A DNA stretch of 64,000 nt. Source: Vicinamibacterales bacterium (GTDB taxonomy: Bacteria; Acidobacteriota; Vicinamibacteria; Vicinamibacterales; JAMQPK01). This document shows positions 3,419-63,447 of the stretch, piece after piece. Made by a program: the position numbers and the translations under genes. The notes beneath the pieces were generated by a model. It had not been told where the DNA came from and did no database searches. It was given only the letters and a program-made list of their open reading frames with translations. Position 1 is the stretch's first letter. Each line of letters opens with the position of its first letter. Location: positions 85,486 to 149,485 of the forward strand of contig CAVZIS010000007.1 in the NCBI GenBank assembly GCA_963775345.1, read 5' to 3'.

Positions 3419-3500
3419 GTAAGAGCTAAGAGATAAGAGCGAAGAGACAAGAGTCTTGTGCTCTTAGCCCTGCGCTCTGAGCTCTCTGGCTTAGCTCTTA
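3419..3500. terminator. long imperfect hairpin of heptamer units (TAAGAGC class) between convergent genes; putative bidirectional terminator
   Basis: The left arm is taagagc taagaga taagagc gaagaga caagag. The outer 11 bp (3420-3430 taagagctaag) pair perfectly with 3490-3500 cttagctctta, and the apex is acaagaGtcttgt. TAA at 3420, 3427 and 3434 closes all three plus-strand frames. The right arm encodes the last codons and stop of the cupin gene. Confidence 0.5.
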
Positions 3501-4075
3501 GCTGCTGGCTTTGCCGCCGGCGGGGCAGCCGGAGCGGCAGGAGCGGCTGCGGGGGCCGTTACTCCAGCAGCAGCAGCGGGCGCCGTTCCAGGATCCGGCT
3601 TGATGAACAGCTCGATCACCTGAACAGCCGCCGAGCTCTTGTTCGTGAATCCGTGCGTCTGCCCCTTCGCCATGTAGTACGCCTGCCCGGGGACCGTGGT
3701 GACCACCGGATCCTTCTCGACGGTCAGCTCGAGCGATCCCGTGACCGGGACCAACATGTGAAACGTGACGTCGTTATGGACGTGCGGCCTGCGCACCGCG
3801 CCGGGTTGCAGCGTGACCTGCAGCACACGTACATGGGCATTCTCGACGACGACGAGGAAATTTACGCCGGGATCGGGATTGCCTGTCACCCCGGCCTTCG
3901 TGGCGCCGCCCCCGCGTGCCGGCGGTTGCGCCTGACCCGTCGCCGGGGCCGGAGGTGCCGGGGCCGGGGCTGCGGGGGCCGGGGCCTGCGCCGCTGGATC
4001 CGGTGTTTGCGCTATTGCCGGGAAATACGCCAAAGCACTAATCGCGATCGTCAATCCGATCACTTTCTTGAGCAT
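3491..4075 (-). CDS. secreted cupin domain protein with Ala/Pro-rich flanks
   Basis: The internal start MLKKVIGLTIAISALAYFPAIAQ (signal peptide) is preceded by a GAGGAG Shine-Dalgarno. Cupin barrel motifs PHVHNDVTFHMLVPVTG ... GQAYYMAKGQTHGF are present. The ORF track extends it to 4159. Confidence 0.7.
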   Translation of the reverse strand: MLKKVIGLTIAISALAYFPAIAQTPDPAAQAPAPAAPAPAPPAPATGQAQPPARGGGATKAGVTGNPDPGVNFLVVVENAHVRVLQVTLQPGAVRRPHVHNDVTFHMLVPVTGSLELTVEKDPVVTTVPGQAYYMAKGQTHGFTNKSSAAVQVIELFIKPDPGTAPAAAAGVTAPAAAPAAPAAPPAAKPAAKS

Positions 4076-4130
4076 CGATGACTCCTCTGCCTTTAGCCGC
4101 GGGCCAGATACCTGCTCCGGCGTCCAGTTC

Positions 4131-4733
4131 TCATACGCGGGCGGCTGCCGGTTCTTCATGGGTGATTGTGGTGCCGAGCGCGGCGAGGAACTGCCTCAGC
4201 CACTCGACATGGCAGGTCCACGCGGGGCCGGTGACGAGGTTGCGATCGGTGATCGCTTCGGGAAAGTCGAGGTTGACGAACTCTCCGCCAGCGGCGGTGA
4301 CCTCGGGTGCCACGGCCGGGTAGGCGTTCAGCCTGCGTCCCTTCACGACGCCTGCCGCGGTGAGCAGTTGCGGTCCATGACAGACTGCGGCGATGGGTTT
4401 GTTCGCATCGGCGAAATGCCTGACTGCCTTCAGAACGTCCGGATTCAGCCGCAGGTATTCGGGCGCCCGACCCCCTGGAACGAGGAGCGCGTCGTAACTC
4501 GCCGGAGCGATCTCGTCGAAGGTCGCGTTCAGCGAGAAATTATGGCCCGGCTTCTCGGTGTAGGTCTGATCGCCTTCGAGATCGTGAACGGCGGTCTTCA
4601 CCTTGTCACCAGCTTTCTTACCTGGGCAGACCGCGTGCACAGTGTGGCCGACGGCCTGCAGCGCCTGGAACGGAACCATGGCTTCGTAGTCCTCGACGAA
4701 ATCGCCGACGATCATCAGAATTTTTTTCCCCAT
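4131..4733 (-). CDS. DJ-1/PfpI family protein (intracellular protease / glyoxalase III-like)
   Basis: Intact 200 aa: [17 protein letters not shown] ... [11 protein letters not shown], the nucleophile-elbow Cys-His of the DJ-1/PfpI fold. Confidence 0.85.
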
Positions 4734-4741
4734 CGCGGCAC

Positions 4742-4774
4742 CTCTGCCCTTTGCTCTCTGCTCTTTGGCGTTGG
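4742..4774. repeat. heptamer tract CTCTGCC class in the pfpI/SDR divergent spacer
   Basis: ctctgcc ctttgct ctctgct ctttggc. The purine-rich complement lies directly upstream of the pfpI ATG (4733). The same unit class occurs inside polA (16741-16777). Confidence 0.6.
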
Positions 4775-4840
4775 ACTGTCAAGTGAGGCACGGTACGTTA
4801 CCATCAGCGGAACAGGTTGTCAAACTGCTAAGCTTGTCGA

Positions 4841-5581
4841 ATGGAGCTCTCGAATCGCGTGGCATTGGTGACCGGCGGCAAGCGGATTGGCGCCGTGGTG
4901 GCCATCGAGCTCGCGCGGCACGGAGTTGATCTCGCGCTGTGTTACAACCGTTCGCGCGCGGAAGCCGACCAGACCGCCGCCACCATCAGGAATCTCGGGC
5001 GCCGCGTGTTCGTGAAACAGGCGGACCTCACAAAGGCGTCCGAGGGCGAAGTGTTTGTGAACGAAAGTGCGGCGGCGCTCGGCAGAGTCGACATCCTCAT
5101 CAACATGGCGTCGATCTATGTCAGCAAGCCGTTCCGCGAATTAACCGTGGAGGATTACGACGAGAATGTCGCGGTCGACATGCGCTCGGTCTTCGTCTGC
5201 TCTCGCGCTGCATGGCCGCACATGCGGCGAAACGGCGGCGGCCACATCATCAACTTCTCCGATTGGCTGTCTCGCAGCGGCCGGCCGCGATACCCGGGCT
5301 ATCTGCCGTACTACGTCGCGAAAACAGGTGTGATCGGGCTCACCGAAGCGCTGGCGCTCGAGCTCGCTGCTGACCAGATCCGTGTGAACGCCATTGCGCC
5401 CGGGCCCATCCTCGCGCCGCCCGAAACGACAGACGAAGAACTGGCGTCAGTCGAGAAGGCGACGCCTCTCGGTTCGTGGGGTGGAGAGAAGGCGATTTCG
5501 GACGCCGTGCTCGCGCTCCTGAGGTGTGACTTCATTACCGGAGAAACCATCCGCGTCGACGGCGGACGGCACGTGAAGTGA
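4841..5581 (+). CDS. SDR family oxidoreductase
   Basis: Intact 246 aa with the Rossmann motif VALVTGGKRIG, NMAS, and catalytic YYVAK (YxxxK). Confidence 0.85.
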   Translation: MELSNRVALVTGGKRIGAVVAIELARHGVDLALCYNRSRAEADQTAATIRNLGRRVFVKQADLTKASEGEVFVNESAAALGRVDILINMASIYVSKPFRELTVEDYDENVAVDMRSVFVCSRAAWPHMRRNGGGHIINFSDWLSRSGRPRYPGYLPYYVAKTGVIGLTEALALELAADQIRVNAIAPGPILAPPETTDEELASVEKATPLGSWGGEKAISDAVLALLRCDFITGETIRVDGGRHVK

Positions 5582-5582: not shown

Positions 5583-5632
<50 letters not shown>

Positions 5633-5720
5633 TAACGCAGAAACTGCAGTCTCGCGAACAAATTCACTGCGGTACTCTGTGCGACGGCCGGCGGCAAGCA
5701 TCGTGCAAGGTTCCACGGGC

Positions 5721-6099
5721 ATGAGAAACATGCCTGACCTGCTCGATCGCGTTTACCGGTTCTCGCTTGCATCGCTCCGGTTTTATCGACGACTGCCCAA
5801 AGGCCCGGATGCACAGGTCCCTGGGGTTCAGTTTTACAGAGCTGCCACATCAAGCTGGGCAAACTACCGAGCCGCTCAACGAGGACGCTCGCGGTCTGAA
5901 TTTATCGCGAAGCTCGGTAATGTCTCGGAGGAATCAGATGAAGCCGTGGGCTGGCTCGAAATTCATGCGGGATGGAGAGATTGCAAGTGACCCGACCCTG
6001 CTTGTCGAAGCGAAAGAACTGGCCGCAATGTTTACCGCGTCACTGACCAGCGCGCGGCAAAACTCTAAGCGGCAGGATAGAGATTCGCCGAATCGCTGA
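5721..6099 (+). CDS. four-helix-bundle protein (23S rRNA intervening-sequence protein family, PF05635/TIGR02436-like); one frame break near 5955
   Basis: MRNMPDLLDRVYRFSLASLRFYRRLPKG...QFYRAATSSWANYRAAQRGRSRSEFIAKLGNVSEESDEAVGWLE continues in ORF 5767..6099 (...DPTLLVEAKELAAMFTASL). Size (~126 aa) and motif spacing fit the family. Confidence 0.7.
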
Positions 6100-6108
6100 C
6101 TCTCGACC

Positions 6109-6153
6109 TCCTTTTTACTTTTCACTTTCTACTTTTTCACTTTCTACTTACAG
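6109..6153. repeat. right inverted arm of the four-helix-bundle cassette
   Basis: The reverse complement reads ctgtaa gtagaaa gtgaaaaa gtagaaa gtgaaaa gtaaaaa gg. The termini CTGTAAGT (5584-5591) and ACTTACAG (6146-6153) are perfectly complementary. The arm encodes the last four codons (VSRK) and TGA of pckG. Confidence 0.8.
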
Positions 6154-7903
6154 CAGCGCCACCGAGCGCATCCGCGAGCCGCTTTTGTTCCTCGAACATT
6201 TCCTTTGGCACGCGAGGCCCAAGCGACCTGAAGAACATCGCCTGATCCGCGGAGGCTTCCGCCCAATCTCCCGGTTCGACCGCTGTCAGCGCCTGCAATG
6301 CTTCGTCGGAGATACTCAACCCGCTGCGATCGATCGCATCCGGGGTCGGAACGATGCCAATCGGCGTGGCCTTGCCGTTGCCGGCTCCGTCGCATCGCTC
6401 GAGGATCCACTTGACGACCCGCAGGTTTTCACCGAAGCCCGGCCACAGAAATTTTCCACGCGAATCGGTACGGAACCAGTTGACGCGAAACACCTTCGGC
6501 GGCGACGAGAGGGTCCGGCCCATGTCGAGCCAGTGCTGGAAATAGTCACCGATGTTGTACCCGCAGAACGCGAGCATCGCCATGGGATCGCGCCGAAGCA
6601 CGCCGGTCTTGCCTGACGCCGCTGCCGTCGTTTCCGACGACAGCGTGGCGCCGAGGAACACGCCGTGCTGCCAGTTCTTGGACTCGTAGACGAGCGGCAC
6701 ACGCTGCTGGCGACGAGCGCCAAACATGATGGCGTCGAGCGGCACCCCCTTCGGATTTTCAAACTCGGGCGACAGCGACGCGCAATTCACCGCCGGCGTC
6801 GTGAATCGGGCGTTGGGGTGCGTCGCTTTCTCGCCAGAGTCGGGCGTCCAGGGTCTGCCTTGCCAGTCGAGGGCCTGGTGCGGCGGTGGATCGTCGTGCC
6901 CCTCCCACCACGGCGTGCCGTCTGGACGCAGTGCTGCGTTGGTGTAAATCGTGTCGCGTCTGAATCATATCGAAAGCGGTCGGATTCGTGCTCGACTCGT
7001 TCCGGGAAGCACACCGAAGAACCCGGCTTCGGGATTGACGGCCCACAGGCGGCCGTCGGTGCCGGGACGAATCCACGCGATGTCGTCACCGACCGTCCAG
7101 GTGTTCCAGCCCGGCATCGAGGAGGGAGGCACGAGCATCGCCATGTTCGTCTTGCCGCAGGCGGAGGGAAATGCTCCGGCGACATATCGCACCGGTCCAT
7201 CCTGGTATCGGCAGCCGACGATCAGCATGTGCTCGGCCAGCCAGCCTTCGTGGTGCGCCTGGTAGCTTGCAAGGCGGAGTGCGAGGCATTTTTTTCCAAG
7301 CAGCGCGTTGCCGCCATAGCCCGATCCGACCGACCAGACCGCGTTCTCTTCAGGGAAATGCACGATATAGCCGGCGATCCGGGCTCAGGTCGCCAAGAGA
7401 ATGCAGGCACTTGGTGAAGTCGTCCGAGTCGCCGAGGTGATCGAGCGCGACCTGGCCCACACGGGTCATGATGCGCATGTTGAGCACGACGTAGCGGCTG
7501 TCGGTGATTTCGACGCCGACCTTGGAATACGGCGAGCCGGGAGGGCCCATCAGAAACGGCACCACGAACATGGTGCGCCCCTTCATCGATCCGGTGAACA
7601 GCGGGATCAGCTTCTCGCGCGCTGCGTCCGGCGCCATCCAGTTGTTGGTCGGTCCGGCATCCTCCTGGATGGACGTGCTGACGAACGTCAGATGCTCGGT
7701 GCGTGCGACGTCGTGAGCAGCACTGCGATGAAGGTAGCAGCCGGGAAGCTTCTCCTGGTTGAGCTCGATCAGCTCTCCGGAGGCAAGGCACTCGGCGATC
7801 AGTCGATCCCGTTCAGCCTTCGATCCGTCGCAGTACACGACAGCTGACGGCAACGTCGAGAGCCTTTGATGTCCTCCACCCATTGACGAACGGCCGAATT
7901 CAT
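6137..7903 (-). CDS. pckG: phosphoenolpyruvate carboxykinase (GTP); at least 4 frame breaks
   Basis: ATG at 7903 ([13 protein letters not shown]). Signatures: [16 protein letters not shown] (P-loop), [37 protein letters not shown]. Fragments 7350..7949, 6965..7363, 6759..7076 and 6137..6790 join at about 7865, 7355, 7000 and 6955. Confidence 0.9.
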
Positions 7904-7962
7904 TCGCACATCCTATCCCAGAAGATTCCTCGACGGAACGCGGTACCATACGGTTTCACAAT

Positions 7963-9351: not shown

Positions 9352-10544
9352 ATGTTTTCTTCGCGGCTGCGGCAGGTCACCGAGCGCAACCGGATTGCGT
9401 TCGCGCTCGAGGCGCGCAGAGCGGCAGGGCTGCCAATCGTCGATCTCACGCTGTCGAATCCCGACGCGCGCAGGCTTCGTGTATCCACCCGGCGTCCTTC
9501 AGCCGCTCGCGCAGGAGCGCGCCTCTGTTACGAGCCTCAGCCGTTCGGATCTGCCATCGGCCCGGCAGGCCGTGTCGGACGAGTTCGCACGGCGAGGCGT
9601 GACACGTCCAGCCCGATCGCATCGTGCTGACGGCCAGCACGAGCGAAGCGTATTCTCTGCTGTTCAAGCTGCTTTGCGATCCCGGTGATGTCGTGCTCGC
9701 GCCGAGGCCGAGCTATCCGCTGCTCGAGCATCTGACCGGTCTCGATAGCGGTCTCTACTGCGAACACTGCAGTCTCGAATTCCACCGGGCAGATGGGCGA
9801 TGGATCATCGACGGCCTGCAGGAACAGACTGTCAGCTCGGCGAAGGGACGGTACGCGCGATCATCATGATCAGCCCGAACAATCCGACCGGCTCGGTGGT
9901 AACCGCCGGCGAGGCTGCGCGCAGTTGGCCTCGCTCGCACATGCAGCACGGCCTGGCGCTGATTTGCAGACGAGGTGTTTGCGGACTATTCGATCGCCGG
10001 CGAGGAATGTACCAGCGTGCTCGACATGCGATGATGTGCTGACGTTCGCCCTTGGCGGGCTGTCGAAGTCGGTAGGGTTGCCTCAGATGAAGCTGGGATG
10101 GATCGGCGTGGGCGGGCCGGCCTGCTTGGTCAGCCGACGCGATGGATCGCCTCGAGACAATCTGCGACGCATATCTGTCGGTTTCGACGCCCGTTCAGGT
10201 CGCGGCTCGCGGAACTGCTGAAAGCAGGAGCGCAGGTCCGCGCGCAGATTCAGCGCCGCGTGCGCAGCAACTTCGCAACGCTTGTGGACATCGCGTCAGA
10301 ATTCCCTTCCTGCTCGGTGCTTCCTGCCGAAGCCGGCTGGTATGCCGTCCTCCAGGTGCCGGCGATCAGAGTCGGAGGAGTCGTGGGTGCTGGAGTTGCT
10401 CGACAAGACCGGCATCCTCGTCCATCCGGGGTACTTTTTCGACTTCGAACGCGAAGCATTCCTCGTCATCAGCCTTCTTCCGGAACCAGCCTTGTTCTCA
10501 TCGGCGCTGCAGACGCTCTTCCACGAGATCGGCCGGTTCGATGA
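9352..10544 (+). CDS. pyridoxal-phosphate-dependent aminotransferase (class I/II); many frame breaks (8 or more)
   Basis: LTASTSEAYSLLFKLLCDPGDVVLAPRPSYPL, ISPNNPTGS, GGLSKSVGLPQMKLGW (PLP-lysine region) and ILVHPGYFFDF are spread over six or more ORF fragments. The 3' end is taken as the TGA overlapping the malQ ATG and is uncertain. Confidence 0.7.
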
Positions 10545-12050: not shown

Positions 12051-12145
12051 TCCGAACACGAAGATCCACGGAACCGAAGATCACGAAACACGAAGATCCA
12101 CGAAGAGCACGATCCACGAGAACACGGCCCACGAAGAGAAAGAAG
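12051..12145. repeat. degenerate tandem repeat, CACGAAG class (about 9 units, period 7-10 nt)
   Basis: cacgaagatc cacggaaccgaagat cacgaaa cacgaagatc cacgaagag cacgatc cacgagaa cacggcc cacgaagag. It lies between the malQ stop and the DUF1015 start. No inverted partner arm is seen. Confidence 0.7.
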
Positions 12146-16542: not shown

Positions 16543-16543
16543 C

Positions 16544-19298
16544 TCAGTGACTAGGGCAATGAGGCAGCGAGACGTTTGCGTCTCGCCAATTTGGGCCGAT
16601 CCCCACGTCAACCGTTAACGGCACCGGACAGCGAGGCGGCACCTTCCATGGCTTGCCGCACCTGATCGGCGACGTCACCTGCATATTCCTCCCGGCTCTC
16701 GATGAGCAGCTCGTCATGAACCGTGAGAATCATCCTTGCGCGCTCTGCCCTCTGCCCTCCCCCCCTGCCCTCTGCACCTGTCGGAATTCAGCGCCTCGTG
16801 AACCCTGAGCATCGCGCGCTTGAGGATGTCGGCGGCGGTTCCCTGAATCGGAAAGTTCACCGTCATGCGCTCGGCGCCCTGGCGGATCTGGTGTGTTCCG
16901 GCTGTTCAGCTCCGGCACCATGCGGCGGCGCCCGAACATCGTTTCGACGAAGCCCCTGCGTCCGCGCCTGCTCGATCGTGCGATCGATGAACTGGCGCAC
17001 GCGCGGGAAGCCGCCGAAATACGCGTCGATGAACTCCTGGGCGGCGCCTGGCGTGACACCGATGTCGCGCGCGAGCGTAAACGCCGTTTTGCCGTACAGC
17101 AGGGCGTAGTTGATGATCTTCGCCCGCCGCCTCAGTTCGTGCTTGTCGAGGCCGCTGTCGGGCCGAAAACCTTGAGCGCCGTCCGATCGTGGATGTCCTC
17201 GCCTCGACGGAACGCGTCGACGAGGGCCTCTTCCTCGGCGAGATGCGCGAGCACGCGCAGCTCAATCTGCGAGTAGTCGGCCGAGATCAGCACATAGCCG
17301 GGATCGGCAATGAACGCTCGCCGAATCTCGCGGCCCAGATCGGTACGGATCGGAATGTTCTGCAGATTCGGATCGCTGCTGCTGAGACGTCCGGTGGCTG
17401 CCACCGCCTGATTGAAGGAGGTATGCACGCGTGCGGTGCGCGAGTGAACCAGCTGCGGCAGGGCGTCGATGTAGGTGCCCTTCAGCTTCTGCAGCGCACG
17501 CCACTCGAGAATCAGCTTCGGCAGCTCGTGCGTGAGCGCAAGCTCCTCGAGCACTTCGACGGCGGTCGACGCGACCCGCGTCTTGCCCGTGCGCTTGGCC
17601 GTCGGAAGTTGCAGCTTGTCGAACAGAATCACCGAGAGCTGCTTCGGCGAGTTGATGTTGAACTCTTCTCCGGCCAGCTCGAAAATGCGCGCGCTCCGTG
17701 GACGCCAGCTCAGCCTCGATCCGCTGCGATTGGCTGGCAAGGGCGGGCTGGTCGATTCGAATGCCATGCCGCTCGATATCCGCCAGCACCGGCACGAGCG
17801 GGAGCTCCAGATCGCGGTAGAGCGGCTCGAGACCGTGTTCTCGCAGGCGAGCGCGAGTTTGTCGGCGAGTTGCCACGCGAGATCTGCTCGCTCGCCCGCG
17901 AAATTCAGAATAGCTGCGGCGGGAAGATGGGGCAGAGCAATCGTCTTCTGCCCGGTACCGCACACGTCTTCCTGTGTCAGCGCCTTGTAGCCCAGATGCT
18001 CGAGCGCGACTTCTTCGATCGTATGGCCCGAGCGCGTCGCATCGACGACATAGCTGGCGAGCATGGTGTCGAACTCGAGGCCGTTCAGGTTGATGCCTTC
18101 GTGCGACAGCATCATCAGATCGAATTTCAGATCGTGCCCGATCTTCCTGACGAGCCGGATTTTCGAGAACGCGCTTCAAGCGCGGCGAGCCCGGCCTTTC
18201 CCGTGATCGCCGAAGGCTCGTCGAGCGCGGTATGTCCCACCGGCAGGTAGCGGGCTCGCCCCGCCGCCGTCGAAAACGAGATACCGACGAGCGACGCGTG
18301 CATGCCGCCAGGGCAGTCGCCGATGACGCTCAACGCGAATCGTCCGGCACTCTCCAGCTCCGATACCAGCGCAGCAAGGTCCGCCTCGGTCGCCACGATC
18401 TTGTAGTCGGCATCGACCGTGTCCGCGGTCGGCGCGTACTCGGTCACGAGCGTGCGGAATCCGAGCAGGGAGAAGAGCTCGAAGCACTTCTGCCGATTCG
18501 GGCCCCGATAGTCGAAACAGGACATGTCGACATCGGGCAGCGGCACATCGGTGCGGATTCGCAGCAGCAGTCCGGCTCTCGCGCGCAGAGTCTGCGTTGC
18601 GCGAGCAACGCTTCGCGATATTTCTTCTGCGTGAGCGAGCCGGCATTCTCGAGCAGCTCGTCGAGCGACCCGTGGGTCGCAGATCAAATCGCGCGCGCCT
18701 TTTTCGCCGATGCCAGGCACACCCTTGATGTTGTCGATGGTGTCGCCCATCAGCGCGAGCACGTCGATGGCCTGCTCCGGAGTGACGCCAAGTTTCTCCT
18801 TCACGCCGGCCGCGTCGTACCACGCGCCTTCATCGCGCGGATTGAACACGCGGATTCCCGTCTCGTCGTTAACGAGCTGAAAGAAATCCTTGTCGCCGGT
18901 TACGATCGCGACCGGGCGCCCTTCGGCCGCGCTCCGCGACGGCCAGCGTGCCGATCACATCGTCGGCTTCGAAGCCCGCGAAGGTCAGCACCTGCACGCC
19001 GAGTGCTTCGCACGCCTGATGCACGAGCGCGATCTGCTCGGCCAGATCCGACGGCATCGGTGCGCGGTTCGCCTTGTAGTCGTCGCGCATCTCCGATCGG
19101 AACGTCGGCCCGCGGAGATCGAAGGCCGCTGCGATGCACTGCGGGTTTGTGATCGTTGATGAGCTTCCGCAGCATCGTCACGAAGCCGTAGATGGCGTTG
19201 GTCGATCGGCCATCAGGCGCAGTCAGACCCCGAATCGCGTGGTAGGCGCGATACATCTGGTTGCTGCCGTCGATGAGAAACAGTGTGGGTTTGGACAA
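16544..19298 (-). CDS. polA: DNA polymerase I; heavily frame-broken (about 10 breaks)
   Basis: TTG start with MSKPTLFLIDGSNQMYRAYHA (5'-nuclease domain). Motif A is DYSQIELRVLAHL, motif B is RRAKIINYALLYG and motif C is MILTVHDELL. The C-terminus is VDVGIGPNWRDA. Confidence 0.9.
16741..16777. repeat. intragenic heptamer tract (CTCTGCC class) inside polA; G4 motif on the coding strand
   Basis: ctctgcc ctctgcc ctccccc cctgccc tctgcac. C-runs at 16748-50, 16755-57, 16759-65 and 16768-70. The tract encodes a Gly/Arg-rich insert just before motif C, and a frame break maps to or next to the C7 run. Confidence 0.7.
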
Positions 19299-19343
19299 AG
19301 TTAGCTGGTAGCCGGTAGCTCGTAGCTGGTAGCTGGAAGCTAT
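19299..19343. repeat. heptamer tract nnGTAGC x6 directly upstream of the polA start
   Basis: agttagc tggtagc cggtagc tcgtagc tggtagc tggaagc. TAG occurs every 7 nt (19302, 19309, 19316, 19323, 19330), so it falls in all three frames. The inverse unit GCTACnn occurs at 43141-43175. Confidence 0.75.
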
Positions 19344-19368
19344 CTAAGTGAGTATATCATTTGGGGTT

Positions 19369-24162: not shown

Positions 24163-24203
24163 CCTAGAACAGGAACCCAGCACCCAGCACCTGGAACCGT
24201 GAG
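24163..24203. repeat. heptamer tract CCAGCAC class upstream of the quinone oxidoreductase gene
   Basis: cctagaa caggaac ccagcac ccagcac ctggaac cgtgaga. A related ctggaac tggaacc occurs at about 51224-51240. Confidence 0.6.
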
Positions 24204-43097: not shown

Positions 43098-43175
43098 AGC
43101 CACCGGCCACCAGCCAGCGAGCAGGGCTGAAGCCTCGCGCTACGAGCTACAAGCTACCGGCTACGAGCTATCAAC
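43098..43175. repeat. two-block heptamer tract (CCACCnG block, then GCTACnn block) between the VWA and ZIP genes
   Basis: ccaccgg ccaccag ccagcga ... gctacga gctacaa gctaccg gctacga gctatca. On the transcribed (minus) strand this gives TAG every 7 nt immediately after the VWA stop codon. Confidence 0.75.
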
Positions 43176-44738: not shown

Positions 44739-45114
44739 TCGGCAACCTGGTTCCCGCTGGCTCGTCGCGCTCGACGGTTCCGAACAACCGCTCGGACGAC
44801 GAACCAGGGATTGGGGGTTGGGGATTAGGGATTGGGCCAGTCACGCGTGTCGCGCGTTCGGTCCTAATCCCTAATCCCCGATCCCTAATCCCAGCGGGTT
44901 CTGAGGGTTCAGCGTCAGGTGTCCATTGCCATTCTCCAGCCACCTGCGTCCATCCGCCATCGGTGGCGCCGTGGGTCTCGGCAGCGGCGGCCAGTGCGGC
45001 GACGCGCGCTTCGGAACGCTCCTGCTCACGACGTTGAACTCGGCGAGCCGATGAGAACGCAGCGACTGCGGCGGCAACTGAAACGATGGAGATGACGAGC
45101 ATTGCGGTTTCCAT
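44593..45114 (-). CDS. hypothetical N-terminally membrane-anchored protein; the ORF reads through the hairpin repeat
   Basis: METAMLVISIVSVAAAVAAFSSARRVQRREQERSEARVAALAAAAE... Only the part 5' of the repeat (about 44900-45114) looks like genuine coding sequence. The remainder overlaps the 44301..44738 gene in another frame. Confidence 0.3.
   Translation of the reverse strand: METAMLVISIVSVAAAVAAFSSARRVQRREQERSEARVAALAAAAETHGATDGGWTQVAGEWQWTPDAEPSEPAGIRDRGLGIRTERATRVTGPIPNPQPPIPGSSSERLFGTVERDEPAGTRLPIVRGGGADCDAGRDADLSEYLGLGRARGPPCADGAVRAARADRARSCT
44804..44893. repeat. long hairpin with telomere-like heptamer arms (TAGGGAT / ATCCCTA) and loop core CACGCGTGTC
   Basis: The left arm 44804-44836 (ccagggat tgggggt tggggat tagggat tggg) is C-free from 44806. 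The loop is 44837-44862 and the right arm is 44863-44893 (cctaatc cctaatc cccgatc cctaatc cc). By hand alignment about 27 of 33 positions are complementary. Confidence 0.8.
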
Positions 45115-48220: not shown

Positions 48221-48262
48221 GCCCCAATCCCCAGCTCCTCCTCCCCAGTTTCTCATCCCCAA
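48221..48262. repeat. C-rich heptamer tract (CCCCAAT / CCCCAGT class) downstream of ino1
   Basis: gccccaa tccccag ctcctcc tccccag tttctca tccccaa. The unit matches the ATCCCTA arm class at 44863-44893. Confidence 0.55.
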
Positions 48263-48337: not shown

Positions 48338-49208
48338 ATGTACGAGTACTATTACGGGTTCACCGAAAAGCCCTTCAGCCTGACGCCGGACCCGAAGTAC
48401 CTGTTCAAGAGCGAATCGCACGCGAACGCGTACGACCTACTGCAGTACGCCGTGCTGCCGCCGTGAAGGTTTCGCGGTCGTGACGGGCGACATCGGCACG
48501 GGCAAAACGACACTGTGTCGTGCGCTGATCGAACAAATCGACCGGAACACGTTCTCGTCGCTCGTGCTGAATCCGTTTTTGTCCGAGGAAGATTTGCTGA
48601 AGCTGATCCTGCAGGACTTCGGTGTGGTATCGCGCGAGGACGTGAAGCGCGGCCGGCTCGCACGCGTGGCCAAACAGGAGCTGCTCGAGACGATTTACGA
48701 TTTCCTCCTCAGCCTGCTGCCACTACGGGCGAGTGCGGTGCTGGTCATCGACGAAGCGCAGAATCTGCCGATTCCCGTGCTGGAGCAAATTCGCATTCTG
48801 TCGAATCTCGAGACCGACAAGGCCAAGCTGTTGCAGATCGTGCTCGTCGGACAGCTGAACCTGCATCCCTTGCTCAAGGCGCCACAGATGCGCCAGCTCG
48901 ATCAGCGTGTGTCGATCCGGTCTCAGCTCCGGCCTCTGAGTCGTGACGAAGTGGCGGAGTACGTCTCGCATCGCCTCATCGTGGCAGGCGGAGCCGCGTC
49001 GATCATGTTTCAACCCAGGGCGCTCGATCTCCTGCATAGCCGTTCGGGCGGCATCCCCCGTCTCGTGAATCTGGTGTGCGATCGCTCTCTTCTGGCGGCA
49101 TATTCCGCGAGGACCAATCGCATCTCTCCCGAGATGGTCCATCAGGCTGCGGAGAACCTAGAGTTGTTCGAAGAGCCGGCGAAGGAGAAAATCGAAAGCA
49201 GAAAGTAA
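48338..49208 (+). CDS. ExeA/GspA-like AAA ATPase (resembles the PEP-CTERM-locus secretion ATPase subfamily); one frame break near 48460
   Basis: [28 protein letters not shown], Walker [10 protein letters not shown], Walker [10 protein letters not shown]. The last codons SRK-TAA lie in a purine heptamer tract (49181-49216). Confidence 0.8.
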
Positions 49209-49216
49209 AAAGCAGA

Positions 49217-51208
49217 ATGTCGTATCCTTCCCCCATGGCCGCAAACGATCCCGAAATCTCGGCGCTCCTGCACGAAGACCGTGTTTTCGCTCCCCCGCCG
49301 CAGTTCCGTGCCGATGCCACTGTCCGCGACGCAGCGATCTATGAGGAAGCTGAGCGCGACTACGAAGGGTTCTGGGCGAGGTTTGCCTCAGAGCTCGAGT
49401 GGACCCGCAAATGGACGAAGGTCCTCGAGTGGAACCCGCCGCATGCAAAGTGGTTCATCGGCGGACAGATCAACGCATCGGTCAATTGCGTGGATCGTCA
49501 CATCCGCAGCGCGCGCCGCAACAAAGCTGCGATCGTGTGGGAAGGAGAACCTGGCGACCGCCGCACGCTGACCTATTTCGATCTCTATCGCCAGGTGAGC
49601 GCCTTCGCGAACGTTTTGAAATCGCTCGGCGTCAAGAAGGGCGATCGCATCGCGATTTACATGCCGCTCGTGCCGGAGCTGGCGGTCGCGATGCTTGCCT
49701 GCGCGCGGCTCGGCGCACCACACAGCATCGTGTTCGGCGGTTTCAGCGCCGAATCCCTGCGCGATCGCATCAATGACGCGCAATGCAAGCTCCTGATCAC
49801 GGCGGATGGCGGATACCGGCGCGGGTCGGTCGTGCCGCTGCTGAAGGTCGCTCACGAAGCCATCGAGGGCACACCTTCGATCGAGAACATGATTGTGCTT
49901 CGGCGGCTTGATGGGTTAGGTTCCGGGGCTGATCAGGCGGGCGGCCCGAAGTCTGGAGTCCAAATCCATGACTGGCACGCACTGATGGCAAAGGCTCCCC
50001 TCGACTGCCCGGCCGAACCGATGGACTCCGAGGACCTTCTCTACATTCTTTATACGTCGGGCACAACGGGAAAACCGAAAGGCATCATGCACACAACCGG
50101 GGGGTACCTCACCGGAACTTACGCCACGTCCAAGTTGGTATTCGATCTCAAGGAAGACGACGTCTATTGGTGCACGGCCGATATCGGCTGGGTCACTGGC
50201 CACAGTTACGTCGTCTACGGACCGTTGGCCAACGGGGCGACCGTCGTGATGTACGAAGGCGCACCAGACTGGCCCCGGAAGGACAGGTTGTGGGAGATCA
50301 TCGAGCGGCTCGGCGTGACCGTCTTCTATACCGCGCCAACAGCGATACGCGCGTTCATGAAGTGGGGGACTGAGTGGCCGAAGCGCCATAACATGTCCAC
50401 CCTGCGATTACTGGGATCGGTGGGGGAGCCTATCAACCCGGAAGCATGGATCTGGTACCACAAGAACATCGGCGGCGAGCGTTGCCCCATCGTCGACACA
50501 TGGTGGCAGACAGAGACCGGGATGATCATGATTACGCCCCTGCCCGGCATCACGCAGCTCAAGCCGGGATCGGCCACGGTGCCCTTCCCCGGGATCAAGG
50601 CGGAAATCCGGATGCAATCCGGGGAGGTCGTGAATGTAGGGGGCGGGTTGCTGGCGCTCACGAGGCCCTGGCCCGCGATGCTCCGGGGGATTTACGGCGA
50701 TCCCGAACGCTTCGTGAAGCAGTACTGGAGCAAGTGGGATCGCGCCACTTACTTTACGGGCGACGGGGCGAAGCGAGACGATGACGGCTACTTCTGGGTG
50801 CTCGGACGCGTGGACGACGTGATTAATGTGGCGGGCCATCGTATCGGGACAATGGAAGTGGAGAGCGCCCTGGTTGATCATCCGAAGGTGGCGGAGGCGG
50901 CGGTCGTCGGACGGACCGACGATCTGAAAGGCCAGGCGATTGCGGCTTTTGTGATCCTCAAAGAGGGAAACGCCGCGGCTCCTGATCTGGCTGCAGAATT
51001 GAAAGAACATGTCGTCAAGAAGATCGGATCGATTGCACGGCCGGAAGATATCCTGTTTGCTGCGGACCTTCCGAAGACCCGGTCCGGCAAGATCATGCGC
51101 CGCCTGCTGAAGGACATTGCCGAGGGTAAAACCCTCGGCGACACGACAACGCTTGCCGATCCGGGTGTCATTGCCAGGTTGAAGGCCGAGTACGAAGAGG
51201 GCGGCTGA
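49217..51208 (+). CDS. acs: acetyl-CoA synthetase (AMP-forming)
   Basis: Intact 663 codons from ATG 49217: [60 protein letters not shown]. Confidence 0.95.
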
Positions 51209-51270
51209 GTGGTGGATCAGCCTCTGGAACTGGAACCCAACCTTCGTTGCCGTCGTATGAGTGAGTAGCT

Positions 51271-51975: not shown

Positions 51976-52867
51976 AACGCTTTTTCAAACAGCGGCGAAG
52001 TGGCCGGGTGACGACCTCTCGCAGCGGCGCGTCCCAATTCACATCCTCAGGATTGAGCTCGATCCGCGCTGGCTTGTGGTCTGGATCCGGGATGGGAATC
52101 GCCGACAGCAGCGCCTTCGTGTAGGCGTGCTGCGGATTGCTGAAGAGACGCGCCGTGTCGGCCAGTTCGACGATTCGTCCGAGGTACATCACCGCTGTGC
52201 GCCGGCAGATATGCTCGACCAGCCGAAGATCGTGGGCGATGAAGAGATAGGTGAGCCCGAGTTTTTCCTGGAGCTCGATCAGCAGATTCACGACCTGCGC
52301 CTGAATGGACACGTCGAGCGCCGACACGGGCTCGTCGGCGATGATCAACGATGGATTGAGCGCGAGCGCGCGGGCGACGCCGATGCGCTGCCGCTGGCCG
52401 CCGCTGAACTCATGTGGATACCGGTCGATCGTTGCGGGATCCAATCCCACCAGGCGGTAAAGATCGAGCACCCGGCCTCTTCGTTCGTCGCGGCTGCCCA
52501 TCTGGTGGATGATGAGCGGCTCTTCAATGATCTGCCGCACGCGCATTCGAGGATTCAGCGAAGAATAGGGGTCCTGAAACACAATCTGCATGTTGCGGCG
52601 GGCCAGCCGCATCTCCTCACGCGAGAACGCCAGCACATCCTCGCCGCGAAAGAGCACCTGGCCCGACGTCGGCTCGATCAACCGCAGGATGCATCGGCCA
52701 GTGGTCGTCTTTCCGCTGCCGGATTCGCCAACCAGACCGAACGTTTCGCCTTGATCGACCGCGAAGCTGACGTTGTTTACCGCGCGTACCACGCTGGCTC
52801 TGGTGAGAAAACCCTCACGGCGGGTGAATTCCTTGACAAGTTGACGGACTTCGACGAGCGGAGCCAT
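51962..52867 (-). CDS. oligopeptide/dipeptide ABC transporter ATP-binding protein (OppF/DppF-type)
   Basis: Start [43 protein letters not shown]. The ORF track extends it to 52990. Confidence 0.9.
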
Positions 52868-53850: not shown

Positions 53851-53852
53851 GG

Positions 53853-55446: not shown

Positions 55447-55457
55447 GGACCTACAAT
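55428..55457 (+). promoter_or_regulatory. near-consensus sigma70-type promoter (TTGACA-N18-TACAAT) facing the small ORF at 55612
   Basis: TTGACA at 55428-55433 and TACAAT at 55452-55457, read directly from the sequence. This would give a leader of roughly 150 nt. Confidence 0.45.
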
Positions 55458-55611
55458 GAACACCGTCCTACATTTGTAGTTTCCCGAGTTCGATATTCTG
55501 AAAAATGGCCGAGTCCGGTGGACAGACTTCTGTCGAGCCAATGGTGTAGGCCGGAGACCTATTGCGCTAGGTCCGACCAAGAGCACTAGTTATAGGGGCT
55601 GGAGCCCAGAG

Positions 55612-55941
55612 ATGGAGGATCAATCAATGGATGACGTTGTCAACCGGCTGGCACGTGAGCTCGCCGATGCCATTGCTGCCGCAGTTGCAGATGATCCTCA
55701 AGTCGAGGCGTGCCGGGAAAAGGCCCGCGCCGCCGGGTTTGAAATGAAGGTGACGCTCGAGGCGGTCGTCGGCTTCGTCAGCCGTACAGTGACGGCCGAG
55801 AAGGGCGGGGCCATCGTCAAGGTCCCTGCCGCGAAGACCGTTGCAGCCCGCCGAGCGCTGGATATGACGGCCAACGATCGCCGGTTCCTGCGCTCTCTGA
55901 GAATCGCGGCGGATGAGGCGAAGAAAGAGGAAGTAGAGTAA
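55612..55941 (+). CDS. small hypothetical protein (104-109 aa), family not recognised
   Basis: Intact ORF. The second ATG (55627, MDDVVNRLARELADAIAAAV...) has a GGAGGA Shine-Dalgarno 7 nt upstream. The protein is Ala-rich and helical, with ...TANDRRFLRSLRIAADEAKKEEVE at the end. Confidence 0.5.
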   Translation: MEDQSMDDVVNRLARELADAIAAAVADDPQVEACREKARAAGFEMKVTLEAVVGFVSRTVTAEKGGAIVKVPAAKTVAARRALDMTANDRRFLRSLRIAADEAKKEEVE

Positions 55942-56024
55942 GCAGTAAGGAAGAAGGAAGAACGAAAAAGGAATAGAGCACGCGTGTCACGCCGCTCTTT
56001 TCCTTCTTCCTTCTTCCTTTTTCC

Positions 56025-56031
<7 letters not shown>
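55942..56031. terminator. long hairpin with AAGGAAG-class heptamer arms and loop core CACGCGTGTC between convergent genes; putative bidirectional terminator
   Basis: The left arm 55942-55978 is gcagtaaggaagaaggaagaacgaaaaaggaatagag. The right arm 55995-56031 is ctcttttccttcttccttcttcctttttccttatagc. By hand, 31 of 37 positions are complementary. The arms abut the stop of the 55612 ORF and contain the gpmI stop. Confidence 0.6.
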
Positions 56032-60138
<4,107 letters not shown>

Positions 60139-60178: not shown

Positions 60179-60208
60179 TTGACTTGAATTGCAACGCCGT
60201 CCTATCAT
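60179..60208 (+). promoter_or_regulatory. possible sigma70-type promoter (TTGACT-N18-TATCAT) for the 60259 gene
   Basis: TTGACT at 60179-60184 and TATCAT at 60203-60208. An AGGAG Shine-Dalgarno lies at 60247-60251, before ATG 60259. Confidence 0.3.
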
Positions 60209-60258
60209 CGTAAATTCAACACTCAGCTTTTTTTGATTGGAATTACAGGAGATTTTCG

Positions 60259-61309
60259 ATGAAGTTCCGTCGCGCTTTCGGGACCCTGGCCATTGCGGCC
60301 TTCTTTGCGGTCCCCACATTCGGACAGGACAAAGAGCAAGCGCAGCAGCAGCGAAAGCTCAGCAATGACGAACGTCGTGAATACCTGGCGGTGAACGAGC
60401 TTGTCGATGCCGTCGCTGCCGGCAAGCAACCGGCGCCCGCGGACCTGAAGCTCAAGTTCCAGCATCACTTCCTGAAATCGAACAAGAACGTTTACATCCC
60501 GTATATCACCGAGATCAGCGGCGGCAAGTTCAGCTCCTTTCCGGTCACGATGTATGTGCGGGCGGTCCAGAAGACGGCATCCCCGACCCCGGCCCCGCCC
60601 GGCGGCGCAGGCGAAGCCGACCGACAGTGAGCCCAACTGGCCTTTTGCCGACGTCTATTTTCTGAATGAGAAGAACATCACGGCCTCGGGCGACGTGACG
60701 GAAATCGGGCGCGCGCTCGAGCTTCCGCCCGGCGAGTACACGCTTTACATCGCGATACGCGAACGTCAGCCGCGCGACAAGAAGCAGGGACCTGCCAAGA
60801 GTGTCGTTCTGGCCCAGCCGCTGTCGGTACCCGATATGAACAAGGGGCTGACCACGAGCAGCATCATTCTGGCCAAGGGACTTGACCCGGCGCCCGAACA
60901 GCTCACGGGCCAGCAGCAGCTCGAGCAGCCTTTCACTATTTCCGGCTATCGGGTGACCCCTGCGTTCTCGTCGACGATTCCCCAGTCGGGAGAGTTGTTA
61001 TTCGTCTTTTTCATCTACAATGAAGGTGTGGCTGCCAGCGGGAAGCCCGATCTGGACGTGGAGTACAACTTCTTTCGTGCCTCCGAGGAGAAGCCCTTTA
61101 CCAGGCTGGCCACGCAATCGTTCAACGCAACGACTTTGCCTGGGCAGTTCGACTTGAATGTGGGGCACCAGGTGTTTGTTGGCCAGGGGATTCCCCTCAA
61201 GAGCGCCCAAATGACGTTCGCGCCGGGTGAGTATCGGTTAGAGGTCAAAATAACTGATAAGACCAACAGCCAGACTATTACTCGAAATGTTCCGTTTACC
61301 GTTGCGTGA
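60259..61309 (+). CDS. secreted hypothetical protein (~350 aa); one frame break near 60600
   Basis: Signal peptide MKFRRAFGTLAIAAFFAVPTFGQ and a Pro/Ala linker, then ORF 60554..61309 (...GEYTLYIAIRE..., ...GEYRLEVKITDKTNSQ...), suggesting two beta-sandwich-like repeats. No family recognised. Confidence 0.55.
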
Positions 61310-61382
61310 GCGTGTCTTGTTCGTGCAGGCGGGTCTTGTTGTCCGGGACCCGGCATTTGTTAGAGGGTGGTACGGTGGGTTA

Positions 61383-63276
61383 ATGGCCCGATGGTTCCCT
61401 GCGGCGGCAATCGCGATTCTCGTGGTTGGCGCTCCATCTGCGTACCCGCAGACCCCTTCAGGCGGGCGGTCCAGCCGCAGCGCCTTCCCGGCGGGCAGCA
61501 TCGAAGGACGTGTGCTGGACGATCGTCAGAGCCCGATCCCGGGCGCAATGGTGTCGGTCGTCGGCCGGGTGACAGCCGCTGCGACCACTGACCGCAACGG
61601 CCGCTACACGCTGCGTGAGCTTCCTTACGGTCCCTACATTCTGAGCGTGCACTCGCGCGGCTACTACCGATCGCGCGGGCGCACTGTTCAGCTCACCTCG
61701 ACGATGGTTTCGATTCCCGAAATACAGCTGGCGCGCGCGTCGGCTCCAAAGACTCCGGAAGCGTGAGCCGGCGCCGGTCGTTCAAACGACGCAACTGGCA
61801 GGATTCAATCTCGACGCGGCGCCAGCTGAACAGAATGTCCGAGAGGAATCTGCCGGTGGTGACGAGCCGGAGATCGATGACAGCGAAGCGGGTGAGACGG
61901 CGTGGCGGCTGCGCCACCTCCCCCGCAGCATCCTGAAGGACGTGGCTGACGGCTCGGTTTGGGCCGACAACGGCGACGTCGAGACACCCCGCTGGTGGAG
62001 CGAGAGCTCGGGCGCGGTGATTCCCATCGCCTTCTTCAGCGACCTTCCCCTCTCGGGGCAGCTGAACCTGATGACGGTGGAGTCGTTCGATCGTCCTGGT
62101 GAAATCTTTGGAACACACGACGTTCGCAGCGTCGCGTTCGTGTCGGTGAATACGCAGGCCGCGGGCGGCGCCTGGTCGATGCAGGGTGCGATGACGCAGG
62201 GGGACCTGTCGTCGTGGATTGTGGCCGGCTCGTACAAGTCGATCCACTCGGATAACCACGCCTACGAGCTTGGGCTCTCGTACAGCACGCAGCGATACGA
62301 CGGCGGGAATGCTGCTGCGGTGAGTGCCATCCGCGACAACGCGCGGAATGTCGGCAGCGTGTATGGATTCGACGAGTGGACAGTATCGCCGCGGCTCGTG
62401 TTGGGATTCGGCACCGGCTATGCCCGCTACGATTACCTTGGCGGGCCCGGCGTCTGGAGCCCGCGGCTGAGCGTCACCGTGCCTCTGGATGGCTTCCGCA
62501 TCAGGGCGCTCGCTTCACAGCGGGCGGTCGTGCCAGGCGCCGAGGAATTCGCACCATCGGTCACCGGAGTGTGGCTGCCACCCGAGCGTACGTTCTCGTC
62601 TCTCGCACCGCAGGGTCGCTTTACCGTAGAGCAGACGCGCCACCTGCAGCTTTCGCTGGAGCGTGATCTCGCGGCCGGCGTCGCGGTGTTCGCACGCGGG
62701 TTCGATCAGCGGACCGACGATCAGTTGATCGAAGTCTTCGACGCCGTCCCGGGCCACGCGCACTTGCCGCTGGGGCACTACTACGTCGCGACCGCCGGCA
62801 ACATCGAGGCGCGCGGCTGGGGCGTCGGTATGACGCAGGAAGTGCCCGGCTATGTTCGTGGCACCGTCGAGTACACCGTCGCTTCGGCCTACTGGGATCC
62901 GTCATCCGATACCTCAGTCGTGCGAGCGATTCGTACTCTGCCGTTGAGATCGGTGGAGAACGTCCACGACCTCCAGACGACCGTCGAGGCAACCATTCCG
63001 CAGACCGCTACCCGGCTTTACGCGAAGTATCGGGTCAACAGTGCTTTCTGGAGCGGAGAGCCGGACGCTTACATGCGCTCGGGCGCCAACGCGCGCTTCA
63101 ACATCCGCGTGAACCAGGCGCTTCCGTTTCTGCGCTTCTCGAATGCCCACTGGGAGGCTCTAGTGGATGTTCGAAACATGTTCCGCGAGGAGATCGCCGA
63201 GGCGTCGGTCTACGATGAGGCTTTGGCCATCCGGGCTCCCAAACGCATCGTGGGTGGCCTGCTTGTAAAGTTCTAA
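61383..63276 (+). CDS. carboxypeptidase-regulatory-like domain protein fused to an outer-membrane beta-barrel; one frame break near 61760
   Basis: Signal peptide MARWFPAAAIAILVVGAPSAYPQ and GSIEGRVLDDRQSPIPGAMVSVVG..TDRNGRYTLRELPYGPYIL (CarboxypepD_reg). The C-terminal 440 aa are rich in alternating beta-strands and end in ...GGLLVKF (terminal Phe). Confidence 0.65.
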
Positions 63277-63447
63277 ACCACCCTCACTTTTCCACTTTCT
63301 CCTACAATAGAATTCAAGATTCTGGATTTTTTAGTCCATTGGGATGGATTCCGTTCGTCAAACTGCCGATAAGTTGTTGTAGATAAAAGAATTGCTGGGG
63401 TATGGGCTTTGCAATCCAGTAGACGCTCCCCGAATGACCGTTCTCGA

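Follow-up and report, generated by a model that had tools for sequence, protein, structure and literature searches.

Tandem arrays of seven-nucleotide units, the short tandemly repeated repetitive sequences (STRRs), date from 1990, and one of them is said, by the title of a report by Vioque from 1997, to be inserted in a gene for a structured RNA. Repetitive extragenic palindrome (REP) and REPIN sequences are repeats which are dispersed, palindromic and intergenic, with a single small RAYT gene between inverted copies. Here we describe heptanucleotide arrays in a Vicinamibacterales soil bacterium of the phylum Acidobacteriota. The window, i.e. the whole stretch of DNA that was analysed, comprises 64,000 nucleotides (contig CAVZIS010000007.1 of assembly GCA_963775345.1, positions 85,486 to 149,485). 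Its 13 period-7 arrays are named T1 to T13 (Table 1), and the two arms of T4 enclose a gene for a four-helix-bundle (4HB) protein of the family known from intervening sequences (IVSs) of 23S rRNA. With little more than even confidence we favour the reading that these are STRR-type arrays which occur lineage-wide in Vicinamibacterales, that their hairpins serve as transcript-end elements, and that one hairpin is an IVS-type 4HB cassette.

Heptanucleotide arrays are described from several groups of bacteria. In cyanobacteria the 7-bp STRRs form hairpins of no known function, for example between hupS and hupL (PMC2670836). The GGGAATC repeats of Xanthomonas and the GGGGA(C/T)T repeats of Anabaena are intergenic (89-93%), and most of them overlap a stop codon or are no more than 50 bp away from one; each Xanthomonas genome contains 70-75 convergent, i.e. 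inverted, GGGAATC pairs (PMC4692102). The position of GGGAATC-type repeats is conserved between species and their length is variable, transcripts tend to start or stop there, and GGGNATC repeats form G-quadruplexes (G4) in vitro; a 4HB protein is not mentioned in that paper (PMC4692102). In marine Beggiatoaceae the unit TAACTGA forms arrays of 2-6 copies in spacers and some open reading frames (ORFs), which are located just upstream of start codons, and the unit is also found in cyanobacteria and Bacteroidetes (PMC4679880). As far as the work of Mrazek (2007) is quoted in PMC4679880, many bacteria have more heptanucleotides than any other class of long simple sequence repeats (SSRs), and polymerase slippage was proposed as their cause. 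A heptamer is also part of the 23S rRNA IVS of Coxiella, where a stem of 28 bp holds the S23p ORF in its loop. The 5' part of this IVS contains 2-3 tandem GACAGAT heptamers, the number of which varies between strains, and RNase III excises the IVS, cutting at the first repeat; S23p has no known function and is probably not expressed in Coxiella (PMC4990558).

A previous reading of the DNA, made from the sequence alone and called the sequence-only reading here, had likened the arrays of the window to STRRs, and the tandem 7-nt units, the concentration at gene boundaries and the supply of stop codons bear this out. As in cyanobacterial STRRs there are several families per genome, which are intergenic and form hairpins, and CCCCAAT-type units are common to T10 and to a 4HB gene flank of Planktothrix, as in a cyanobacterial STRR; unlike these, the host belongs to the Acidobacteriota (Vicinamibacterales) and has a GC content of about 62%. 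A literature search aimed at Acidobacteriota gave no description, which agrees with the sequence-only reading. Its further suggestion that the inverted arrangement of the arms might be new had to be given up, because inverted pairs near stop codons are known from Xanthomonas (PMC4692102), and the arrangement was published for the cyanobacterial hupS-hupL spacer as well (PMC2670836). The Xanthomonas and Anabaena repeats consist of a single G-rich unit, which was read in terms of G-quadruplexes (Rehm et al. 2015, PMC4692102), whereas at least six unit families, mostly not G-rich, are present in this one 64-kb window. The window differs from the Xanthomonas repeats also by hairpins built around terminator-like cores, by hairpins that lie in frame within genes and by the gene that one hairpin encloses. 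The Beggiatoaceae repeats differ from the window by their single unit, their nearly always direct orientation and their position before start codons. As far as known, the acidobacterial host and the general link between 4HB cassettes and arrays are new, whereas the arrays and their inverted arrangement are of known kinds. No relevant paper was obtained by a literature search joining the 4HB or S23 family with heptamers or STRRs, and we know of no link between STRRs and 4HB genes.

The window and about 0.5 Mb of related loci were scanned for tracts in which, of 21 successive positions, at least 16 carry the same base as the position p nucleotides further on, with lags p of 2-22 and 30 dinucleotide-preserving shuffles as control. 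Tandem Repeats Finder (TRF) was also run on the window, and the array sequences were additionally read directly. At lag 7 the window contains 13 tracts where 0.23 are expected from the shuffles. The multiples 14 and 21 give 7 and 4 tracts, the remaining lags between 2 and 22 give 0-3 tracts each, and no period that is not a multiple of 7 is enriched. Among the relatives, period 7 is over-represented against chance and against other periods in some, not in all. The TRF copy numbers at period 7 are 3.3-6.4, which corresponds to the three or more head-to-tail copies by which STRRs and heptanucleotide long SSRs are recognized. TRF and the lag scan together recover period-7 arrays at essentially all coordinates given by the sequence-only reading. 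It had also described one strand as strongly depleted in C; that holds for most arrays, since a C fraction of at most 0.10 or a G fraction of at most 0.07 on one strand is found in the left arm of T2 and in T4, T9, T10, T11, T12 and T13, but not for the GGTAGCT tracts T6 and T8, which lack strand asymmetry. In T1, T3 and T5 the A fraction is at most 0.03. The GC content of the window is 60-66% without any compositional island. That each locus uses a unit of its own proved to be wrong, as six locus pairs share their unit within one mismatch compared to 2.1 expected (P=0.008).

Genes were assigned by Pfam on selected ORFs; calling by GC content at third codon positions (GC3) was too unspecific in this GC-rich window. 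Ten of the 13 arrays are located in short spacers, most of them starting at a stop codon or a few bases from one, and three are in frame within genes. The claim that the tracts mark gene boundaries stands for the former and fails for two of the tracts it included, 16737-16780 in polA and 44805-44893 in an ORF of about 265 aa. Seven stop codons are inside an array or at most 5 nt away, so that the arrays are, like STRRs, mostly intergenic and near ORF ends. All seven gene 3' ends which had been named as lying against tracts were found there, namely those of the cupin gene (3491-3493), PckG (6137), the exeA-like gene (49208), the 55612 ORF (55941), the VWA gene (43154), the M16 gene (63276) and gpmI, whose true stop lies at the outer edge of 55994-56033. 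The tract-encoded ending SRK followed by the stop is indeed common to PckG and the exeA-like gene, and TAA at 3420, 3427 and 3434 places stops in all three frames.

The arrangement of the arrays follows the orientation of the genes. The convergent junctions M16/cupin (3416-3503), SDR/PckG (5586-6149) and 55612 ORF/gpmI (55935-56033) carry paired complementary arrays, and the hairpins at these three junctions begin at, or a few bases from, both stop codons; in T12 both stop codons are at the outer hairpin edges. Co-directional and divergent junctions carry solo arrays (4740, 19299, 24163, 43098-43170, 48221, 49181 and 63281). About half of the arrays form complementary pairs, several of them around a small GC-rich stem-loop, which gives hairpins of 30-45 bp with energies down to -70 kcal/mol. 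In 520 kb of acidobacterial loci that were not selected for a 4HB gene, an inverted partner was present for 24 of 48 period-7 arrays.

The hairpin T4 at 5586-6149 shows the architecture of ORF-bearing 23S rRNA intervening sequences, i.e. a 4HB gene enclosed by a hairpin. The sequence-only reading, which had offered no mechanism, had missed this gene as well as the frameshifts of the window. The arms of T4 match at 35 of 38 aligned positions, and in a 581-nt transcript they are paired around the ORF in both the minimum free energy and the centroid fold. The frameshift-corrected ORF matches PF05635 with an E-value of 2.3e-5 and 25 bits, which is below the gathering score of 33.8. The protein P0001, which is 97% identical to the ORF over 100% of the query, matches TIGR02436 ('four helix bundle protein') with an E-value of 1e-10 and 41.7 bits at a cut-off of 24. 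The sole solved relative found by sequence is PDB 2RLD (E 4e-15 with the family profile), which has five chains. As in Coxiella and Leptospira, an ORF of the S23p/4HB family (PF05635, TIGR02436) is located in the loop of a long stem formed by complementary termini that enclose it; unlike the rRNA IVSs, the element is found between SDR and PckG instead of in helix 25 or 45 of 23S rRNA, and its arms are arrays of 6-7 units and 40-50 nt. A search of the window with Rfam gave no matches at the gathering score and no rRNA. REP/REPIN-RAYT systems resemble the element by dispersed intergenic palindromic repeats and by one small gene flanked by inverted copies. They differ in that the gene flanked here encodes a four-helix bundle which matches only PF05635/TIGR02436 and no Y1 transposase, and in that the repeats are tandem arrays with a unit that varies by locus. 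No obvious target-site duplication was seen in the cassette ends read, for which no systematic search was made; the outermost bases are inverted (CTGTAAG...CTTACAG). Homologs in other genomic contexts (L025, L027 and L028 among the related loci, which are numbered with L) are each framed by inverted heptamer arrays, and a fourth, L024, has the right arm, its left flank being cut by the contig end. A single insertion of the cassette in one clade was considered from the identity of PckG to that of the window, which is 81.7% in the cassette-bearing L024 and 80.4-80.5% in the cassette-free L005 and L002.

The 4HB family is large (9078 clusters at 50% identity, E of at most 1e-3), and a sample of 85 loci was used to look at the flanks of its genes. 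Eighty loci were obtained by a metagenome scan with the family profile (38-76% identity to the query), to which L023-L025, L027 and L028 were added. Flanks were defined as the sequence within 260 nt upstream and 160 nt downstream of the 4HB ORF, and the rest of the loci served as comparison. Period-7 arrays occur with 2.22 per kb in 4HB flanks and 0.087 per kb elsewhere, period-8 arrays with 0.78 and 0.055 per kb, and no other period is enriched beside 4HB genes. At least one side carries an array in 48 of the 63 loci with full flanks. The complementarity between upstream and downstream flank exceeds that of all 20 shuffles in 42 of 61 loci, compared to 11 of 61 in the direct-orientation control. 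Inverted pairing, rather than the frequency of arrays, is the feature specific to 4HB genes. The cassette arms typically consist of 4-7 units. Among annotated plasmids, those of Gloeocapsa, Planktothrix, Nostoc (three strains) and Chlorohelix (Chloroflexota) carry 4HB genes with inverted heptamer arrays on both sides (units in Table 1), while a 4HB gene of Bernardetia has no clear framing by inverted arrays.

The period of the flanks, 7 or 8, follows the clade of the 4HB protein. In 57 of 58 cases the flank period is that of the nearest neighbour with less than 95% protein identity, which was reached in 0 of 2000 permutations; among the period-8 cases the agreement is 15 of 16. Units of the type GAAAGTR are found with related 4HB proteins in the window and in L024, L028, L030, L038 and L042. 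Since arrays of period 7 and of period 8 are both found elsewhere in the same contigs, a period determined by the host was rejected as the sole explanation. Several 4HB genes with array flanks are located amid defence operons (L109-L111 and L115, which are plasmids of Gloeocapsa, Pseudanabaena, Planktothrix and Chlorohelix); the contexts are drmD-4HB-MmeI, csx2-4HB-cas1, DUF1156-4HB-Swt1 HEPN and helicase-4HB-N6 methylase. A 4HB gene of Pseudanabaena (L110, 1295-2060) is flanked by a 35-nt super-repeat of five heptamers.

The arrays were also looked at in relatives, whose loci were recruited via one ORF of the window. All are Acidobacteriota, mostly labelled Vicinamibacterales, and several are syntenic with the window at 76-81% nucleotide identity. 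Arrays were found in L002, L005, L007, L008, L012, L017 and L022, among them genomes assembled with MEGAHIT and with SPAdes. Compared to L023, which is 92% identical, the left arm of T4 has an indel of 14 nt and the right arm one of 7 nt, and between the close relatives L007 and L008 the number of units differs and at one site the unit itself, so that copy number is polymorphic by whole units as in STRRs. At the SDR/PckG junction the unit is GTAGAAA in the window, ACGAAAA in L005 and GAAGAAT in L022, yet site and hairpin are kept. The 3' end of the inositol-1-phosphate synthase gene, the site of T10, has arrays in five of five genomes with the units TAATCCC, GGTTCTG and GGTTCGT, and full hairpins in L118 and L119. 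The junction equivalent to that of T3 carries (TAGGGAT)n in L005, and the array T6 is absent from the polA 5' junction of L005 (about 20600) and L022 (about 20830). These comparisons demonstrate slippage by whole units, a concerted change inside the arrays and array sites of long life: the arrays gain and lose whole 7-nt units and persist at their junctions despite drift or replacement of the unit, with a limited repertoire of unit families.

The hairpin T9 is located inside a gene. Its host is a conserved membrane protein of about 265 aa (45113 to 44301, minus strand) with full-length homologs of up to 88% identity. The arms are translated to GIRDxGLGI and PIPNPQxPIP, peptides that are conserved in the homologs, while the middle part encoded by the loop is variable and sometimes absent; in some homologs one arm is missing. 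Four orthologous DNA sequences retain the hairpin with -60 to -66 kcal/mol, a fifth ortholog is without the AATCCC arm, and the orthologs use the codons ATT, AGG, TTA and GGG, which are unusual for a GC3-rich genome. This points to maintenance of the hairpin at the nucleotide level. A further intragenic array, T5, is also in frame in L001, L002 and L005, where it is translated RAEGRG and so on.

Folding energies differ between the arrays. The region 44800-44898 (T9) reaches -70 and -56 kcal/mol for plus and minus strand, respectively (z -8.5 and -6.6), and the region 55930-56036 (T12) -51 and -54 kcal/mol (z about -9.5). The region 3414-3506 (T2) folds weakly, with z of -1.4 on the plus and -3.1 on the minus strand, and solo arrays are unstructured with z about 0. 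The core of T12 is terminator-like, with a GC-rich stem-loop and a U-rich tract. At the T2 site the canonical core of a bidirectional terminator (A6, GC stem, T5) is present in L005 and L022, with heptamer arrays on both flanks. At the T8 site between VWA and ZIP genes a full GGTAGCT hairpin is found in L119, a plain bidirectional terminator in L120, solo arrays in the window and L117, and nothing in L118. In this way array hairpins occupy the sites of intrinsic terminators in relatives. They resemble bidirectional intrinsic terminators in their location between convergent genes, starting from the stop codons, and in the GC core with A-rich 5' and T-rich 3' flank (T12, L005, L022 and L120). 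Unlike in plain terminators, the flanks are mutually pairing heptamer arrays of 30-45 nt, and some hairpins such as T9 have no U-tract. In 29 of 37 4HB cassettes the left arm is purine-rich, which gives a T-rich 3' arm as a terminator requires.

Where two arrays are complementary, either transcript can fold into a hairpin of 30-45 bp starting from the stop codon. In the reading we favour, the hairpins would be extended, often bidirectional transcript-end elements with a role in termination and protection of the 3' end, and probably substrates of RNase III. Solo arrays may be half-decayed or nascent arms. The arrays would double as termini of an IVS-type selfish cassette, which the host may tolerate if its RNase III cuts the 4HB cassette from the transcript at the stem, as in rRNA. 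Several results weigh against this. A terminator scan of 43000-57000 gave no excess (11 terminator-like sites, 10.1 expected), and only the core of T12 was picked up by it. T9 is inside an ORF and has no U-tract, T2 folds weakly on the plus strand, and solo arrays are unstructured, with T3 and T6 located upstream of start codons at divergent junctions. The mismatches of the arms show no bias to G·U on the 4HB sense strand (68 vs 88) and so give no sign of selection on the RNA rather than on the DNA. By a rough estimate the chance of an array is about 14% for a generic spacer and 56% for a 4HB flank, i.e. only about 4-fold higher. The window has one 4HB gene and 13 arrays, and in the 400 kb of L001-L022 there is none; therefore most arrays are not termini of cassettes now.

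The arrays might instead be a neutral by-product, in that a bias of replication or repair toward slippage by 7 nt creates them wherever they are tolerated, i.e. in spacers and disordered protein loops, and without any function, the hairpins being ordinary terminators with flanks that expanded by chance. Whole-unit indels between close relatives, the presence of arrays at every type of junction and in ORFs, the missing G·U bias and the absence of T6 from L005 and L022, where the array of the window resembles a local seed GAAGCTA, are in line with it, as is the published hypothesis in which the polymerase touches the DNA over about 7 nt (Mrazek 2007, as far as quoted in PMC4679880 and PMC4692102). 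We nevertheless regard it as rather unlikely, since the arms stay complementary although the unit changes, the hairpin T9 is kept in orthologs against the codon preference, units are common to unlinked loci above chance (P=0.008), and a host-wide bias predicts one period per genome, whereas both periods coexist and the period tracks the 4HB clade. An error of the assembly is a practically negligible explanation. Many single-base frameshifts are present in conserved genes of the window which are in frame in relatives: at least four in polA (16612-19298, minus strand), one in the exeA-like gene at about 48460, an extra A near 5960 in the 4HB ORF compared to a 92% identical JGI contig, and others in the gene around 44745 and at the C-terminus of gpmI near 56030. 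At least one of them is in a homopolymer, the C7 run within T5, and they made a few gene ends look nearer to arrays than they are. These frameshifts are probably indel errors of the assembly of an error-prone long-read type. They did not create the arrays, because MEGAHIT and SPAdes metagenome-assembled genomes (MAGs) and JGI contigs, which are independent, carry arrays of the same kind at the same junctions; arrays are also present in finished cyanobacterial plasmids. We rejected the artefact on the ground of the Illumina MAGs, and the arrays proved not to be confined to this contig, a possibility which the sequence-only reading had named against itself.

A system similar to REP/RAYT was considered as well. 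The 4HB protein, of a family reported as pentameric, would bind the arrays, the gene-bearing cassettes would be autonomous, and hairpins without a gene as well as solo arrays would be derivatives resembling MITEs (miniature inverted-repeat transposable elements), or landing pads, which spread by copying. It would account for the inverted arrays around 4HB genes of three phyla and of the Coxiella IVS, for GAAAGTR units beside related proteins, for the period that co-segregates with the protein clade and for unit families that recur at unlinked loci; the typical 4-7 units per arm, the Pseudanabaena super-repeat of 35 nt (5 x 7) and the five chains of 2RLD would fit. Yet the 4HB protein has no nuclease, recombinase or polymerase domain, the window has one 4HB gene per about 13 arrays and the 400 kb of related loci none, and at least six unit families per 64 kb would require many paralogs or a specificity that is loose. 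The link of clade and period is accounted for by descent, with gene and arms inherited together, so that binding is unnecessary; the cassette ends that were read, without a systematic search, show no target-site duplication, and S23p is probably not expressed in Coxiella (PMC4990558). We consider such a system unlikely. In its widest form, arrays of hepta- and octanucleotides and 4HB proteins (S23p or Avd-like) would be one element across phyla, with the arrays as termini and binding sites of the pentamer and the period set by the protein and not by the host polymerase; rRNA IVSs, cyanobacterial STRRs, the GGGAATC pairs of Xanthomonas and the acidobacterial hairpins would be its gene-bearing and gene-less, MITE-like forms. 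This we put forward as a speculation that is more likely wrong than right by a wide measure. Hardly probable is a role as cis-regulatory sequence, in which a post-transcriptional regulator binds to the solo arrays upstream of start codons, these arrays take the place of the ribosome-binding site, or G-rich units form G4. The distance from the end of T3, T7 and T11 to a start codon is 6-10 nt, T6 adjoins a start codon, the Beggiatoaceae repeats have the same position (PMC4679880), and T9 and T10 use GGGATTR units, which recall the G4-forming GGGNATC (PMC4692102). However, most units of the window are not G-rich, the orientation to the downstream gene is inconsistent (T3 and T11 purine-rich, T7 and T10 C-rich in the sense strand), and most arrays are tied to stop and not to start codons.

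The coordinates of the arrays and of the 4HB gene are given in Table 1, together with the units beside plasmid-borne 4HB genes. T3 begins 6 nt upstream of the DJ-1 start codon; the DJ-1/PfpI gene is restricted to the lineage of the window (3992-4818), and relatives have a 2.2-kb insertion after PckG (7928-7935). The SDR/PckG hairpin is replaced by an unrelated gene in L002. T6 looks grown from, or inserted at, the seed GAAGCTA beside a conserved promoter-like TAAGTGAGTATATCAT. Relatives have a 1.6-kb insertion near the junction with the array at 12054-12134. Many of the units from all fetched loci fall in two loose groups across unrelated hosts, one containing GATT/AATC and one containing AAGT/ACTT. 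In L018, an acidobacterial MAG, stretches of period 9 are found in place of period 7, at 16506-16593 and seven other sites, including a GGACACAAA / TTTGTGTCC hairpin. A 607-aa ORF at 10142-11965 was rejected as PckG, which by Pfam is encoded at 6137-7950 on the minus strand; a look-up of the exact protein of this ORF gave no record.

Table 1. Repeat arrays and the 4HB gene of the window, and array units beside 4HB genes on plasmids
Feature	Coordinates	Strand	Description
T1	1945..1982	+	GCTCTCT-type period-7 stretch in the part of the second M16 peptidase gene that encodes the signal peptide (MKRLFALCSLLLALL)
T2 left arm	3416..3455		(TAAGAGC)n, begins 3 nt past the M16 stop (3411-3413)
T2 right arm	3460..3503		(GCTCTTA)n, holds the cupin stop codon 3491-3493 (minus strand); hairpin weak
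T3	4740..4772		solo (CTCTGCC)n between divergent DJ-1/PfpI (4131-4733, minus) and SDR (4841-5581, plus)
T4 left arm	5586..5635	+	(GTARAAA)n, begins 5 nt past the SDR stop; 5' terminus of the 4HB cassette
4HB gene	5720..6107	+	125-codon ORF in the loop of T4; PF05635 / TIGR02436, 23S rRNA IVS protein family
T4 right arm	6108..6149	+	(YACTTTY)n, holds the PckG stop codon 6137-6139 (minus strand), C-terminus ...VSRK-stop
Related array, not period 7	12054..12134	+	purine-rich, period 8-9, CACGAAGAT-like, directly past a stop codon
T5	16737..16780	-	(GGCAGAG)n read in the sense of polA; part of the variable loop that precedes motif C (RMILTVHDELL)
T6	19299..19344		solo (TAGCTGG)n, abuts the polA TTG start (19298, minus strand)
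T7	24163..24203	+	solo (ACCCAGC)-type, co-directional genes, ends 10 nt before ATG
T8	43098..43170	-	(TAGCTCG)n and (AGCCACC)n, between the stop of VWA (43154) and the start of the ZIP transporter (43081)
T9	44805..44893	-	(GGGATTA)n / (TAATCCC)n hairpin in frame in a membrane-protein ORF
T10	48221..48262	+	C-rich (CCCCAAT)-type, past the myo-inositol-1-phosphate synthase stop (48187), small hairpin ahead of the array
T11	49181..49217	+	(GAAAGYA)n, spans the exeA-like C-terminus (...ESRK-stop) and the 9 nt that precede the ATG of acetyl-CoA synthetase (49218)
T12	55935..56033		(AAGGAAG)n / (CTTCCTT)n hairpin, its core a GC-rich stem-loop with a T-rich tail; convergent 55612 ORF / gpmI
T13	63281..63305	+	short pyrimidine-rich (CACTTTY) array 5 nt past the M16 stop (63276)
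Gloeocapsa plasmid 4HB flanks			TTTTAGA / TCTAAAA
Planktothrix plasmid 4HB flanks			CCCCAAT and CGTAAAT
Nostoc punctiforme plasmid 4HB flanks			(AATTCGC)4 / (GCGAATT)4
Chlorohelix plasmid 4HB flanks			GATGAAG / CTTCATC

The arrays described here are an ordinary further instance of a class of repeats, in a phylum for which no description was found. For the annotation of such genomes it is relevant that arrays supply stop codons, sit in frame in genes and coincide with frameshift errors in long-read assemblies. What is more, two puzzles are linked by them, the heptanucleotide repeats, for which function and origin have long been obscure, and the S23p protein encoded by rRNA intervening sequences. 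The link is a gene of the IVS family inside array hairpins outside of rRNA in Acidobacteriota, Cyanobacteriota and Chloroflexota, with a period that is inherited with the protein clade.

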